Shown here: positions 1 to 6,000 of the stretch, one piece after another
How the letters are laid out: every line of letters starts with the position of its first letter
How positions within the stretch are numbered: the stretch's first letter is position 1
From: Escherichia coli
GTDB lineage: Bacteria; Pseudomonadota; Gammaproteobacteria; Enterobacterales; Enterobacteriaceae
DNA length: 32,332 nt
Direction: 5' to 3' (one strand)
Assembly: GCF_003334335.1 (NCBI RefSeq)
Contig: NZ_QOWQ01000046.1
Made by a program: the position numbers

Positions 1-3000
1 CAAATGCCTGATGCGCTACGCTTATCAGGCCTACAGATTCTTGCGCCATTCGTAGGCCGGATAAGGCGTTCACGCCGCATCCGGCATGAACATGTAGGTC
101 AGACGCCGTAACGTTCGCACCAGCCAAGAATGGCTTTCTCGAAGCAGGCAAAAGGTGGATGCACAATGCCCGCGCCAATCATGCCGACGCCCGCATCTTT
201 ATGGGCGATGGCGGTGTTGATCACCGGCAGAATGCCGCTGCTACCCACGCGGGTGATGTCGATTGCCGACGGCACGCCCATAAAACCGAGCAGCGGAATG
301 GTGACGTTGGGGTTTTCACCGAGGGTGATTTCGCGCATCTGACGGGAGAAATCAATAGCTTCTTCCACCGTGCCGCCCACCAGCGCGACGATAGCGGGCG
401 CGGTCGCCATAGCAAATCCGCCAATACCGTAGGTTTCGGTGATGGCGCTGTCGCCGATATCCAGCCCCGAATCTTCCGGCTTATAACCGGCAAACATCGG
501 GCCGATCACCTGCTGCGCCGGGCCGGTAAACCATTGCCCCGGCAGGCCGCTGACCCGCAGGCCGAACTCGACGCCGTTACGCGCCATGGTGGTGACCACG
601 GTGCTGTATTCGATGCCATGCGCCGCATCCATCGCCGCTTTACACATCGCCATCCACGTCGGGCCGGAGAAGTAGTCGCTGCTGGCGACAAACTCAAACA
701 CTTCGCGCTGTTGCTCGACGGAATAACCCGCCTGAATAATCCCCGGCGTCAGCGCCTGAATCAGCAGTGTCGTCCCGGCGTTATTGCGGTTATGGCACTC
801 ATCGCCCATATGCAGCGCCTGCGCCAGCATTAAGCGCAGATCGATTTCGCCGATAATTTTCATCGCGTCGCGCAGTATTGGTCCCTGCACATCACGCATC
901 CAGTTCAGGCGGTCAATCACGCTCTGGTCGTTAGCGCCCATACGCAAAATCTTCGCCATCTGCTCGCTCATGTTGGTATAAGCGATGTTGCCGTAGGTTT
1001 TGTTTTTTACGATGTGCATAAACATCGAGGCCGAGGTAACACCCGCCATCGATCCCACGCAGTCGTGCTCGTGACACGGCGAGAAGGTGATCTCCCCGGA
1101 AGCCGCCAGTTCAGCCGCCTCGTCGAGATCTTTCGCCAGTCCTTCGAACACCAGCGCTCCGGTGACCGCGCCTTTCATCGCGCCGCACATTTTTTCCCAG
1201 GTGATCGGCGGCCCGGCGTGAAGAATGGTTTTCGCCGTCATGCCCGGCACCACGTTAATCGCCTGATCAAAACCAATCAGCACCGGATGCGACTGGATAA
1301 TACGCTCCAGCGCCTGCTGGTTAGCGGCGGCGATTTTGTCCGCCAGCGGCGAATCGGCAATGTTATCCAGCGCCTGCACCACCTGCATATTGCCCTGCCC
1401 CGGCGGCGTCCAGTCGAGTTGAGTCACTTCTACATGCTGCTTTTTCAGGTCATCGCTAAACATGGCGATGCCGACGTTAATAACGTTCAATGGTTGGCTA
1501 AACAGTGACTGGCTCATCAGGCTTCCTCCCCTTTGCAGATAAATTCACGCGCCAGCAATCCGGTATTGGTGCTGCTGCTCGCCAGAATCACTCCGGCATC
1601 AAGCAGCATCTGGCTTTGTTGTTCTAACGATGGCGTATCAAGATCGGTACCCAGCACATAGGCGAGAATGATCAACTCGCGTCCTTCGGCAGCGGCGATC
1701 GCTTTCGCTTCTTTGATCGTCTCGATGGTGGAGCCGACCGGATCTTCATGCGATCCAAATCCGAGCACAAAATCCATCACGATCACCGCCACTTCTGGAT
1801 CGCGCGCCTCTTCGATCAAGCGACTGATGCGGTTGGTGGGGTCAATCATCGGGTGCGGCTTGCCGTTGGTGAAGTCGTCATCGCCAAAGTCGAGGAAGGT
1901 GTGTTTGATGCTGCGGTTGATATCTTTCAGGCGGAATTCCGGATCGGGCTGAATGTTGCTGTAGACATCGCCATGTTTTTCCATCACCGCGAACATGGTT
2001 TCGTCGCACAGCGTGCCGCCGCAGAACAGGCCACGAATGTATTTCTGCTGCGGTTGCAGACGCGCACGCACATCCGCAATCAACGGCTGGTTAAGCGTAT
2101 GCAGGTCGAGATTTTCCTGTTTCACGCCGGAGAGCATCACCGCTTTTAGCGCTGCCTCTTTGGTGCCGCGGGCAAACTGTAGCCCCTGCTCATCCACTGG
2201 CGTTTCGCCACGATCGAGGAAGCAGACGACCACCGGCTTGCGGCAGGCGCGCGCACGTTCCAGCACTTTGCGGGCCACCGCAGGCGCAGGCGGTTTGGAG
2301 ATAAGCGCAATGATTTCAGTTTGCGGATCGTTTTCCAGCATCCCGATGGCGTCGAGCATCATCAGGCCGCCGATTTTCTCGCTCAGGTCGCGCCCGCCGG
2401 TGCCAATCAGTTGCGAAACGCCGCCGCCAAATTCATGAATGCGGACGCTCAACTCCTGACTGCCGGTGCCGGATGCGCCAACAATACCGATGTTGCCGCG
2501 ACGCACGGCGTTACCAAAACAGAGCGCCGCGCCGTTGATAATCGCCGTGCCACAGTCTGGCCCCATCATCAGCAGCCCTTTTTCGTGGGCCAGTTGCTTG
2601 AGCGCCAGTTCATCTTCAACTGAGACGTTATCGGAAAACAGCATCACGTTGAGATCGTTTTGCAGCGCCTGACGCGCTTCGCGAGCGGCAAACAGACCGT
2701 TGACCGAAATCACCGCCAGGTTACTTTCCGGGATATGCTTTTTGGCGCTGCCAATAGTGGCGTAACGCGCCTCGTGCGAGCCGCTTTGCGCTTTGGTGTT
2801 GAACAGTTCTTCAATCTCCACCAGCAACTGCTCGTTGTCCGCACCCGATTTACCATTGATGACAATCATCAGGTCGCCGTTTTTCGCCTGCTCCAGCTCC
2901 GGCGTCAGCAGTCCTAAATTCTTCAGCACGCCTTTATTCATTTCGGTCGCCATCGCCACAAATGCCTGCTCGACGCCGTCGAGTTTATTTGCACGCGTGG

Positions 3001-6000
3001 AGATAGACATCAGCGAGACAGAATCAAAATAGGTATTCGGTTTAATGACTATTTTAACTGACATAATTCCCTCCGTAGGTTTGGCTCAGCGCACAACCAT
3101 CGGCCATGCCATACAGCATGTCGCAGCCGGAACTGGAGCCAATATGTTTAATTTTTTCTATTGCCTGAGTTGCGTTCCCAGGGATGTCATAAATAATGTT
3201 GTGAATAAAACGATGAATATTTTCCCGGCAGCGTTGTTGTAATGCGGCTTCCAGCGTTATGGCACTTAATAATGTGGTATTATTTTTGCCGCGTTGCAGA
3301 CCGAGATAAAATTCCTCTTTGTATTTTTCCGCCGGATGCCCGGGAATAAATAAAATAAGCGCCAGACCTGTTAAATAATCGTCGGCTGATGGCGTAAGGC
3401 CAATCCCTAACCCCATCATACTGGCGACCGCTGAGGCGATATTTTGTTTATCGTTTACGGCCTGAATAACTGCCCGTCGTTTAATATGTAATTCTTTATT
3501 TAACGCCTGATAAAACGGATTATCGCCGCGATAATTAAACAGGGTTTCATTTTCCCCCAGGTGCTGATGAATAATGTCGTGCCACTGTAGCCAGGCGATA
3601 AGGTGAAAATTCACAGCGGTCATTTGCAAGGTTGGGGACAGCCAACGCCGACAACGACTCATCTCTATATGAAGATGTTGACCAACCGTAATACCTTGAT
3701 CGTCAAACTGAACCTTATCACCATGCCGGAACAGATCATCAAAGTGACTGAGTGCCAACCGACAACTGTTTGGCGCATTGTCGTACTCTTCACAAAGCAG
3801 CGTCAGCAACTGCTGGCGAGCCGGGAGTGCGATATTTACCGCTCTGGCAAAGACCTGTTCAACCTGTCCTTGCCCCCGCTGCGCCAGAAAATCCGCATCC
3901 GCAGTTAGCGCCCACACACACCGTCTTTCTGGTGTGTTGATAGCAAGCCTCCCGGTTTATGCACCTGCGGCAATCAGTAACTGCGCAATCTCTTCAAAGC
4001 CCCGTTCCCGCGCCAGTTCCAGTGGCGTTTTGCCATATTTATCGGTCAGATGCGGGCTGGCACCGTGTTCCAGCAATAACTGCACAATCGCCTGCTGTTT
4101 AATACCACCATCATTAAGCACAATCGCTTCCAGTAGCGGCGTCCAGCCTACATGGTTGGTCTGGTTAACGTTAATCTCCGTATGCGCCAAAAGCTCTTTT
4201 ACAATACTTAAATGGCCTTTTTCACAGGCAGGCGTCAGGCCGACACCGCCAAAACGGGTTACGCAATTAAGATCGGGTTTAGCCGGTAAAATAATTCGTA
4301 GTAGCGTTAAATCATCGTTCAGACAGCTAATTAAAAAAGGATTTAAACAGGTATGATCTTGCTTATTAATATCCGCTCCGGCATCAATTAATGCCTGAAC
4401 GCAAGCATATTGCTGATATAAACTTGCCAGCGTAATTGCCGTTTTCCCCTGACGATCGCAGGTATTAATATCGACACCCAGCGCAAGGCAGGTTTTTACT
4501 TTATCGATATCACCCTGTTGTGCAGCCAATAAATAGTCGGCAGGTAGATTTTTTATACTCATTCACATTCCCCTGGTTTTTGTGGCTGTTTTCGATGAAT
4601 TGAGAATAGCAACGATAATCTGATAAAAGAACCCGCTTAAATTTAATTCGCCGTATCTCGCCTTTTTGTTGAATAATATTCAACAATCTTTTCGCAGTGT
4701 GCGGTAGTGCAATATTTGTTTCTTTGACCCGATACCCTTTCACTCAATCAGGTTTTATTTCTCTATAGTCTGCACATGTAAGAGTAGCTTTCGTCCATGT
4801 CTAACCAGAGGGGAACAAGATGAACGGACTCACGGCAACGGGTGTCACCGTCGGTATTTGTGCAGGGCTTTGGCAGTTAGTGTCTTCACATGTCGGGCTC
4901 TCTCAAGGATGGGAATTATTAGGAACCATTGGCTTCGTCGCCTTTTGCAGTTTTTATGCCGCAGGCGGCGGTAAATCGGGGTTTATCAGAAGTCTGGCGG
5001 TTAATTATTCCGGGATGGTGTGGGCGTTTTTCGCCGCGCTGACTGCTGGTTGGCTGGCCTCTGTAAGTGGACTGTCCGCGTTCTGGGCGAGCGTAATTAC
5101 TACCGTACCCTTCTCGGCGGTAGTGGTCTGGCAAGGGCGTTTCTGGTTACTGTCCTTTATTCCCGGTGGCTTTCTCGGCATGACGCTGTTTTTTGCCAGC
5201 GGGATGAACTGGACGGTGACGTTACTGGGTTTTCTGGCGGGTAACTGCGTGGGGGTAATTTCAGAATATGGTGGACAAAAATTAAGCGAAGCGACGACTA
5301 AACGCGACGGGTATTAAAAGTTATTCAAAAATGATTATCTATCTTTAACCGATACCTCTACAGTCATAGCTGGAGAAATTCATAGTAGATAATGGCGAGA
5401 ATGGTTTAATGAACTCAATTTTTACCGAAGAGAATCTGTTGGCATTTACTACCGCTGCGCGTTTTGGCAGCTTCAGTAAAGCCGCAGAAGAGTTGGGTTT
5501 AACCACTTCCGCCATTAGCTACACCATTAAGCGTATGGAGACGGGGCTGGATGTGGTGCTGTTCACTCGCAGTACCCGCAGCATTGAGTTAACGGAGTCC
5601 GGGCGTTATTTTTTCCGCAAAGCTACCGACCTGCTGAATGATTTTTATGCCATCAAACGCAGTATCGATACTATTTCGCAGGGCATAGAAGCGCGTGTGC
5701 GCATTTGTATTAATCAGCTGCTTTATACGCCCAAACACACCGCACGCTTGTTACAGGTGCTGAAAAAGCAGTTTCCTACCTGCCAGATTACCGTCACCAC
5801 CGAAGTGTATAACGGCGTCTGGGATGCGATTATTAATAATCAGGCCAATATCGCCATCGGCGCACCCGATACACTACTGGACGGCGGCGGTATTGATTAC
5901 ACTGAAATTGGCGCGATTCGCTGGGCTTTTGCTATCGCCCCGGATCACCCGTTAGCCTTTGTGCCGGAACCCATCGCCGAAAGCCAACTGCGTCTCTACC

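Follow-up and report, generated by a model that had tools for sequence, protein, structure and literature searches.

We propose that yahDEFG of Escherichia coli probably encodes a second carbamoyltransferase core of the AllFGH type, which by analogy with its paralogue would serve the inducible phosphorolysis of an N-acylurea, with ATP made through the carbamate kinase YahI. The reaction, the complex with YahD, the regulation by YahB and the class of substrate are all what we infer from the observations below; the genes form a known E. coli operon, and annotation already exists for them and for their family. In the window (the whole 32,332-nt stretch of contig NZ_QOWQ01000046.1 that was analysed), open reading frames and sequence analysis showed positions 99–4562 to be filled by yahG, yahF, yahE and yahD, all intact and of orthologue length, and the same four genes are annotated in RefSeq for E. 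coli genomes that are 100% identical here. The features of the locus are as follows.

21..85: REP-type inverted repeats, directly after the yahG stop
99..1517, minus strand: yahG, 472 aa, AllG-like subunit (DUF1116, PF06545)
1517..3064, minus strand: yahF, 515 aa, AllF/FdrA-like subunit
3054..3917, minus strand: yahE, 287 aa, GTG start, AllH-like subunit (DUF2877, PF11392)
3957..4562, minus strand: yahD, 201 aa, ankyrin-repeat protein, first gene of the operon
4666..4686: perfect 10-1-10 palindrome, TTGTTGAATA-T-TATTCAACAA, between yahC and yahD
4820..5317, plus strand: yahC, DUF1097 inner-membrane protein, divergent from yahD (open reading frame and annotation)
5409..6341, plus strand: yahB, LysR-type regulator, AllS paralogue, divergent from yahD

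A preliminary description of this DNA had reported four tightly packed genes, with an 11-nt yahE/yahF overlap and an ATGA shared by yahF and yahG. The packing was borne out by open reading frames, sequence and the annotation of identical genomes, and the 11-nt overlap (ATGTCAGTTAA) is present, but the yahF/yahG junction reads GCC-TGA-TGA-GC: the last base of the yahF TGA doubles as the first base of the yahG ATG, giving an overlap of 1 nt (TGATG) and not 4 nt. The gap from yahD to yahE is 39 nt. Among 79 related loci, the E/F overlap measures 11, 23 or 41 nt in 76, and the F/G overlap is 1 nt in 66 and 4 nt in nine. Because these overlaps are kept across the related loci, the tight packing is not due to chance, and it suggests that yahDEFG would be transcribed together. 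Purifying selection acts on all four genes (dN/dS 0.02–0.22), with yahG at 0.02–0.04, yahD at 0.07–0.12 and yahE the fastest-evolving subunit. At least 80% of the length of the 6-kb region was found in 5,017 of 5,426 complete E. coli genomes. The module is flanked by pdeL and yahK in E. coli and by unrelated genes in other genera.

Homology of the three larger proteins to the products of fdrA-ylbE-ylbF, which the same description had raised for checking, was found in BLASTP comparisons of YahG with AllG (45% identity, E = 5e-120), YahF with AllF (38%, E = 2e-101) and YahE with AllH (25%, E = 1e-10). The carbamoyl-transfer role that it gave to the paralogous trio was correct: AllFGH was shown in 2024 to be an oxamic transcarbamylase (oxamate carbamoyltransferase), and the purified enzyme interconverts oxalurate and carbamoyl phosphate plus oxamate, all three genes being required (PMC11326118). 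It also held that the yah copy has no assigned substrate, and none is assigned in the literature that we found; a y-ome review still counts the yah genes as uncharacterised. In RefSeq, YahE is named 'oxamate carbamoyltransferase subunit AllH family protein'.

YahF scored 487.7 bits on the NCBIfam FdrA model PRK06091 (cutoff 433) and matched FdrA structure 3dmy at E = 5e-82; it has an HMA-like N-domain followed by CoA_binding and Ligase_CoA, Pfam domains taken from an 88%-identical Klebsiella orthologue. YahG matched structure 3clq, an uncharacterised DUF1116 protein (E = 8e-196), and PF11392 and PF06545 were detected on orthologues of YahE and YahG. The motifs GLTPSxDD and GxxSGxD of AllH are invariant in 22 sequences from Yah, All and Firmicute homologues. 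The N-terminal ~55 residues of YahG correspond to the C-terminal tail of AllF: residues 8–52 match the C-terminal end of the FdrA NCBIfam model, and residues 12–53 align to the final 42 aa of AllF. F–G fusion proteins of ~1,000 aa also exist and, together with the shifted F/G boundary, argue for a physical F–G complex.

The ankyrin gene has not joined the module by accident: it is conserved there. As first described, it belongs to the metabolic operon: yahD adjoins E-F-G in 72 of 72 proteobacterial yah-type loci, with 66–98% identity. YahD is cytoplasmic, with no signal peptide; its residues 10–201 match ankyrin and DARPin structures, ankyrin NCBIfam models match too, and Ank Pfam families were found on its orthologues. 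In Enterococcus phoeniculicola, the ankyrin protein is fused to TPR repeats and placed after G.

Just past position 1 of the window, in near-identical E. coli genomes, lie yahI and then yahJ, the carbamate kinase and amidohydrolase genes that the preliminary description had expected there. YahI scored 650 bits on the carbamate kinase model, and a kinase is linked to E-F-G in 69 related loci and in nearly all loci overall. YahJ is predicted from its N terminus to be exported by the Tat pathway to the periplasm: its signal (SRREFL...AHA|A) combines a twin-arginine motif, a hydrophobic stretch and an AxA-type site, the RR-x-F-L/I motif is kept in 70 of 70 orthologues, and the protein is listed among predicted Tat substrates (PMC7549933). 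Its signature of HxH 121–123, HxxE 275–278 and the Asp 362 of TDS is of the deaminase type. The closest solved structures are N-isopropylammelide aminohydrolases (6nbo, E = 2e-43; AtzC, E = 4e-30), with CodA at about E = 1e-16, which by sequence places YahJ in the AtzC/cytosine-deaminase branch of the amidohydrolase superfamily. The yahJ gene is missing from Herminiimonas and a few other loci.

The order LysR | ankyrin-E-F-G-(516-aa permease)-kinase-amidohydrolase was constant in 69 loci of other species, in Enterobacterales and Herminiimonas, that span regulator to kinase. Between yahG and yahI, 52 of these carry the permease gene and have no yahC; the remaining 17 carry yahC without the permease, and none has both or neither. 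As loss of the permease always coincides with gain of yahC, in several genera, replacement is indicated rather than decay, and no similarity was detected between YahC and the permease. E. coli has lost the permease gene, with REP elements in its place, and has yahC. Searches with the permease gave no Pfam, NCBIfam or PDB sequence match, and its comparison with YbbY by hhalign was negative. An AF2 model (pLDDT 69) matched the 7+7 fold of NCS2 and SLC26/SulP carriers alike at a TM score of ~0.5, so that the modelled fold cannot tell nucleobase carriers from small-anion carriers. Database sources name this protein 'xanthine permease'.

The regulator gene yahB is divergent from the operon and conserved beside it in the 69 loci. 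The best NCBIfam match of YahB was AllS at 267 bits, followed by PunR at 238 bits; as the curated AllS cutoff is 372, we rejected YahB as an AllS equivalog and regard it as a paralogue of AllS, which activates the allantoin genes. The palindrome at 4666..4686 is the only inverted repeat in 4563–4819 and sits within a conserved block of the intergenic alignment. A degenerate dyad, TTRTTRAA-N5-TTCAAYAA, is found once per locus in 47 of 92 loci (Escherichia, Klebsiella, Citrobacter, Serratia, Buttiauxella and Providencia), always ~100–240 bp upstream of yahD. The palindrome is therefore a candidate YahB operator. The search for a consensus promoter ahead of yahD was negative. Membership of yah in the allantoin (all) regulon was also considered and rejected, as no all genes are adjacent in E. 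coli or in other genera.

It seems rather unlikely that YahEFG is simply a second oxamate carbamoyltransferase acting on oxalurate, whether as an isozyme for other conditions or, with similarly low probability, for another source of oxalurate, such as parabanate or an imino or guanidino analogue deaminated by periplasmic YahJ. The common three-subunit family with its conserved motifs, the closeness of YahB to AllS and the AllH family name already given to YahE all fit such an isozyme. So does the finding that, in a ΔallFGH strain, plasmids with allFG alone or allGH alone still restored 7% and 16% of oxamate formation, values that might, speculatively, reflect help from chromosomal YahE or YahF. 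However, ΔallF and ΔallG single mutants make no oxamate despite chromosomal yahFG (PMC11326118), so Yah does not stand in for All under the conditions tested, although this could simply reflect silence of yah during allantoin growth. The isozyme also sits poorly with the low identity of YahE to AllH, with a module that brings along a kinase, a carrier, a periplasmic enzyme and an ankyrin protein of its own and is never beside allantoin genes in the 69 loci, and with the G tree, where AllG and YahG belong to different clades.

We consider it improbable that the E. coli operon is a cryptic remnant, its pathway unsupported after loss of the permease and its genes persisting by inertia. REP repeats do replace a gene kept in 52 related loci, IS1 is inserted in the 5′ end of yahF in some strains, and the literature found reports no phenotype or expression condition for the operon; yet selection on all four genes is purifying, most complete genomes retain the region, loss of the permease coincides with gain of yahC over several genera, and an ExPEC strain deleted for yahJ had a mild competitive disadvantage in mice (competitive index 0.70; PMC7549933). 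Still less credible is an NDP-forming acyl-CoA synthetase-like enzyme unrelated to carbamoyl transfer, as the older family name 'acyl-CoA synthetase FdrA' and the CoA_binding and Ligase_CoA domains of YahF would have it. YahF does match succinyl-CoA synthetase alpha chains (best E = 2e-16, others weaker), but the match to SucD models ends at about residue 230 of 290, beyond which, we presume, the phosphohistidine loop of succinyl-CoA synthetase lies. Moreover, only one member of the family has been studied by experiment, and it proved to be a carbamoyltransferase; a carbamate kinase accompanies the module in nearly all loci.

Leads to the substrate of the proposed Yah carbamoyltransferase came from relatives in Firmicutes and metagenomes. 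Locus L079 has a yah-architecture module beside the cyanuric acid hydrolase AtzD and an allophanate-hydrolase-like amidase, L085 has one beside an AtzD-family gene, and L080, L082 and L086 carry a BiuH-like hydrolase flanked by two homologues of the 516-aa permease. In a rough neighbour-joining tree with no support values, the G subunits of L079, L080, L082 and L086 form the sister group of the Yah clade, with that of L085 (P0144) outside this group. The Firmicute relatives are 43–52% identical to Yah in F and G and have no ankyrin protein, so that, given also a tree without support values, transfer of their substrate to Yah is weak. In an independent paper (PMC12625717), comammox bacteria are reported to have homologues of allFGHK located together with biuH, trtA and atzF, and ammonia-oxidising archaea to have them together with biuH. 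The Yah substrate is probably not allantoin-derived oxalurate; the acylurea series of s-triazine breakdown (biuret, allophanate or triuret) supplies the leading candidates. The product of an AtzC-like enzyme should still contain a ring, and no ring-opening enzyme is encoded in the yah cluster.

We suggest that YahJ would act first, in the periplasm, converting a precursor into the compound for uptake, which in most genera would enter or be exchanged through the 516-aa carrier, with its predicted UraA-type 7+7 fold; in the E. coli lineage this gene is gone and yahC is there instead. YahE, YahF and YahG, as counterparts of AllH, AllF and AllG with YahD as a dedicated ankyrin-repeat partner, would then convert the N-acylurea and phosphate into carbamoyl phosphate and an amide, by analogy with AllFGH, and YahI would use carbamoyl phosphate and ADP to form ATP, CO2 and NH3. 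Activation of the operon would depend on YahB acting at the conserved palindrome that precedes yahD. A more speculative and doubtful extension is that Yah and its Firmicute, comammox and archaeal relatives near biuH or atzD represent a new energy-conserving route for acylureas (allophanate, biuret or triuret). If so, AllFGH-type phosphorolysis, in Yah with ankyrin as a fourth subunit, and ATP formation by carbamate kinase would replace the hydrolytic step of allophanate hydrolase.

Of known systems, the closest is AllFGH–AllK of E. coli, an oxamic transcarbamylase with a catabolic carbamate kinase (formerly fdrA-ylbE-ylbF-ybcF). Both have three homologous subunits, coupled genes, a co-directional carbamate kinase and a LysR regulator of AllS type, and by analogy they presumably share N-acylurea phosphorolysis to carbamoyl phosphate. 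They differ in gene order (E-F-G in Yah, F-G-H in All) and in the ~45-aa F–G linker segment, carried by YahG in one and AllF in the other; Yah adds the ankyrin protein, a Tat-exported aminohydrolase and its own carrier, lies outside the allantoin genes and does not substitute for AllF or AllG during allantoin growth. The s-triazine/biuret pathway (AtzC, AtzD, BiuH/AtzE and AtzF, with TrtA for triuret) resembles Yah in that the nearest solved relatives of YahJ are of AtzC type and the nearest non-enterobacterial E-F-G-kinase modules adjoin AtzD, BiuH-like and allophanate-hydrolase-like genes. However, the Atz route relies on hydrolysis throughout and captures no energy, whereas Yah would use phosphorolysis and carbamate kinase for the last step or steps, and homologues of AtzD, BiuH and AtzF are absent from the yah cluster. 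The arginine and agmatine deiminase pathways follow a similar logic, with a deiminase or deaminase, a catabolic carbamoyltransferase, an ATP-making carbamate kinase and a dedicated carrier, often a substrate/product antiporter. Their transcarbamylases are single-gene proteins of the ATCase/OTCase fold, unlike the unrelated three-subunit AllFGH fold plus ankyrin of Yah, whose deaminase, moreover, would be periplasmic.

The yahC–yahJ block is among the denser uncharacterised gene blocks left in E. coli K-12, and its enzyme family remained an orphan until 2024, when one substrate was assigned. The Yah substrate, once found, would assign functions to about eight y-genes together and define a second specificity for the new transcarbamylase fold and a role for ankyrin in an enzyme system; it might also reveal how gut and urinary-tract enterobacteria draw ATP and nitrogen from small ureides. 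The search is now reduced to a handful of compounds that can be tested and to one specific reporter, in which the yahD promoter, bearing the conserved palindrome, is combined with YahB.

In the REP stretch after yahG, the inverted repeats pair positions 21–34 with 52–65 and 56–69 with 72–85. The annotated 'yahH' consists of such repeats and has been reported to be full of REP sites (PMC11551758), and the stretch at 21..85 is the site of a 93-nt length difference between strains.

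The yahDEFG operon was confirmed as four intact minus-strand genes, and RefSeq annotates the same yahG, yahF, yahE and yahD in identical strains. Public annotation already covers the genes, their family and even product names derived from the family, and this is not a new system.

Features of the yah region (window positions unless another locus is named)
99–1517, minus strand: yahG, intact
1517–3064, minus strand: yahF, intact
3054–3917, minus strand: yahE, intact, GTG start
3957–4562, minus strand: yahD, intact
Plus strand, divergent from yahD: yahC, DUF1097 protein
Plus strand, divergent from yahD: yahB, LysR regulator
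L092:3058–3755 (E. coli strain EC812A1), equivalent to window about 3017–3057: IS1 in yahF
L007:13961–15511 (Citrobacter freundii): 516-aa carrier gene, at the equivalent position in 52 loci and absent at window 1–98
1380–1517 (YahG N-terminus), versus L002:7220–7345 (AllF C-terminus): F/G segment

The yahE/yahF overlap reads as 11 nt, as the preliminary description had it, whereas the 4-nt ATGA proposed for yahF/yahG is corrected to GCC-TGA-TGA-GC, with a single base common to stop and start (TGATG). Across 79 loci, the E/F overlap is 11, 23 or 41 nt long in 76, and the F/G overlap is 1 nt in 66 loci and 4 nt in 9. The yahD stop TAA (3957–3959) lies in the yahE reading frame and is directly followed by GGGAGG, 31 nt upstream of the annotated yahE GTG and beyond the usual Shine–Dalgarno spacing; there is no canonical in-frame yahE start between this motif and the GTG (window 3917–3959), and orthologues back the annotated position. 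The window is chromosomal E. coli DNA: its first 6 kb are 100% identical to many complete E. coli genomes, at least 80% of this region is present in 5,017 of 5,426 complete genomes, and dN/dS values of 0.02–0.22 for all four genes indicate purifying selection, with YahE the least constrained. In some E. coli strains IS1 breaks the 5′ end of yahF, resulting in a shortened fdrA annotation. Scans of minus strand 1–5500 for consensus promoters and terminators returned nothing, which carries no weight for or against a single transcript, and no Rfam family was found in the window.

Comparison with the K-12 allantoin-region proteins bore out the claimed homology of the trio: YahF is 38% identical to AllF (E = 2e-101), YahG 45% to AllG (E = 5e-120) and YahE 25% to AllH (E = 1e-10). 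YahF also exceeds the cutoff of the curated FdrA model (487.7 versus 433 bits). The best model for YahB is AllS, at 267 bits and under the cutoff of 372, indicating that YahB is a paralogue of AllS and that the regulator was duplicated too. AllFGH was purified in 2024 as the oxamic transcarbamylase, requires all three genes and is co-transcribed with the carbamate kinase gene allK (PMC11326118), in agreement with the carbamoyl-transfer function named for this trio in the preliminary description. The earlier interpretation is thus supported. The AllFGH paper does not mention the yah genes (PMC11326118), and yahC, E, G, H, I and J still figure among the uncharacterised genes of a 2024 y-ome review (PMC11551758). 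A literature search by gene name found no functional study of the yah genes; papers that name YahB give it only as a candidate regulator.

AllG has no counterpart of the first ~55 residues of YahG, which match the last ~45 residues of AllF, so that a ~45-aa segment is part of the F subunit in All but of the G subunit in Yah. In the many ~1000-aa F–G fusion proteins of the family in other phyla, the same segment is a linker. The F/G gene boundary has therefore moved, an argument for F and G acting physically as a single unit.

Downstream of the yahG stop, window 1–98 consists of REP-type inverted repeats whose unit number varies among strains (93-nt length difference from otherwise identical genomes). 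Past position 1, near-identical genomes carry a REP-filled 'yahH', then yahI and yahJ, the carbamate kinase-like and amidohydrolase genes expected there. YahI belongs to the carbamate kinase family (650 bits), and the annotated yahH is made up of the REP repeats and is probably no real gene.

To compare the module between genomes, 76 loci were retrieved from one-genome-per-species collections by means of a YahE orthologue alignment, and nine proteins were mapped onto them by tblastn. The 69 loci that reach from regulator to kinase come from Escherichia, Citrobacter, Klebsiella, Raoultella, Kluyvera, Trabulsiella, Yokenella, Serratia, Pantoea, Buttiauxella, Atlantibacter, Providencia, Proteus, Cedecea and the betaproteobacterium Herminiimonas. 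Their order is constant: a divergent LysR gene, then ankyrin–E–F–G, carrier, carbamate kinase and, in most cases, the amidohydrolase. A perfect palindrome, TTGTTGAATA-T-TATTCAACAA, at window 4666–4686 lies inside a conserved intergenic block, and its degenerate form occurs once per locus in 47 loci, always upstream of yahD, making it the obvious candidate for a putative YahB operator.

A gene for a 516-aa membrane protein lies between yahG and yahI in 52 of the 69 loci, and the 17 loci without it (Escherichia, Klebsiella, Raoultella, Kluyvera, Citrobacter amalonaticus and Pseudocitrobacter) carry yahC instead; no locus has both or neither. E. coli has lost the carrier, and REP repeats fill the vacated position. 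The protein had no sequence match in Pfam, NCBIfam or PDB, and its profile was negative against the NCS2 permease YbbY and against YahC; database labels call it 'xanthine permease' or AGZA-like. Its predicted structure, of moderate confidence (pLDDT 69), has the 7+7 UraA/SLC26-type fold common to NCS2 nucleobase and SLC26/SulP anion carriers, a fold-level assignment that would fit a ring compound or a small anion alike.

YahJ is predicted to be a periplasmic Tat substrate: its N-terminus reads MKESNSRREFL...AHA|A, and the twin-arginine motif is kept in 70 of 70 orthologues. The same prediction has been published with function unassigned, and loss of yahJ left an ExPEC strain at a slight competitive disadvantage in mice (PMC7549933). 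YahJ carries the HxH, HxxE and Asp signature of the deaminase branch of amidohydrolases, and among solved structures it is closest to N-isopropylammelide aminohydrolases (6nbo, E = 2e-43; AtzC, E = 4e-30), with cytosine deaminase behind. Most likely, YahJ acts on a precursor to yield the substrate that is then transported. Herminiimonas carries ankyrin–E–F–G–carrier–kinase without yahJ, which indicates that the module core works without it.

YahD has a dN/dS of about 0.1 and is present in 72 of 72 proteobacterial loci and in Enterococcus, a conservation that suggests a bound partner of the enzyme. The YahE model is confident (pLDDT 91.8) and shows a β-barrel and a helical domain; no solved structural relative was found for it, and the fold thus gives no mechanistic hint.

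Distant modules in Firmicutes and metagenomes share the Yah architecture (G with the N-terminal segment, F of about 515 aa). In Lachnoclostridium (L079), E–F–G–kinase comes after genes for an AtzD cyanuric acid amidohydrolase (above cutoff at 522 bits) and for an amidase resembling allophanate hydrolase. In Paraliobacillus and Amphibacillus (L080, L082) and metagenome contig L086, the module comes after a BiuH-like hydrolase of the isochorismatase family, which lies between two homologues of the 516-aa carrier (36–41% identity in Bacillaceae); the 516-aa protein appears to represent an uncharacterised family of carriers associated with E–F–G–kinase modules. Contig L085 has an AtzD-family gene immediately before F–G, and a 271-aa ORF upstream of the AtzD-family gene is not AllH-like. 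Enterococcus phoeniculicola (L077) carries E–F–G, then an ankyrin–TPR protein, an allantoin-permease-like NCS1 carrier, a small CDA-fold deaminase and the kinase. A rough neighbour-joining tree of the G subunits, without support values, places the L079, L080, L082 and L086 proteins together as sister to the Yah clade, and the L085 protein and AllG elsewhere. According to an independent metagenome study of 2025, comammox Nitrospira have allFGHK homologues collocated with biuH, trtA and atzF, and ammonia-oxidising archaea have them with biuH; these genomes do not contain the upstream genes of the allantoin route (PMC12625717). Some relatives depart from this pattern: a fused F–G gene stands among xanthine-dehydrogenase maturation genes (L091), and another context has a ferredoxin and peptidases (L089). 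The family gives the impression of an all-purpose device for the breakdown products of N-heterocycles. Uracil phosphoribosyltransferase-family genes (L086:10048–10674, L080:3440–4069) accompany the BiuH-like/E–F–G/kinase clusters on two unrelated Firmicute contigs, in one overlapping the kinase gene, a possible sign of a connection to a pyrimidine-like base.

By analogy with AllFGH, we consider it probable that YahEFG would split the carbamoyl group off an N-acylurea with phosphate, with YahI making ATP from the carbamoyl phosphate, YahJ preparing the substrate outside the cytoplasm, a carrier importing it and YahB controlling expression. Allophanate, biuret or triuret are tentative substrate candidates, attractive because these acylureas are one carbonyl from oxalurate and sister systems adjoin enzymes that make them, although identities to those systems are modest and the yah cluster has no ring-opening enzyme that could act after an AtzC-like reaction. 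The substrate, the ankyrin role and the carrier identity are now more directly testable.

That YahEFG is a second oxalurate enzyme is rather doubtful: allantoin-derived oxalurate is an unlikely substrate since ΔallF and ΔallG strains make no oxamate despite intact yahFG (PMC11326118), although yah non-expression in those conditions could also explain this. ΔallFGH cells with plasmid allFG or allGH alone reach 7% and 16% oxamate production, respectively (PMC11326118, Table 3); this residue might reflect chromosomal YahE or YahF standing in, a point absent from the authors' discussion. A cryptic remnant in E. coli is improbable given the purifying selection on yahDEFG and the yahC-for-permease swap, and an acyl-CoA synthetase would be a very surprising identity for YahEFG.

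Two further ankyrin leads were discarded. NCBIfam scores of YahD as an anti-phage or secretion-effector protein (Legionella Ank effectors, MzaA) are far under cutoff and reflect generic ankyrin repeats, and yahD holds a fixed place in a metabolic operon. The Enterococcus faecalis ankyrin EF0377 (PDB 3hra; induced in vivo) adjoins the amidohydrolase ef_0378, then the toxin–antitoxin pair EF0379/EF0380, with no E–F–G cluster directly after. Last, in two Pseudocitrobacter loci (L026, L036), yahF, yahG, yahI and yahJ show 96–99% protein identity to E. coli but yahC, yahD and yahE only 56–73%, which implies recent recombination or transfer with its breakpoint where yahE meets yahF.
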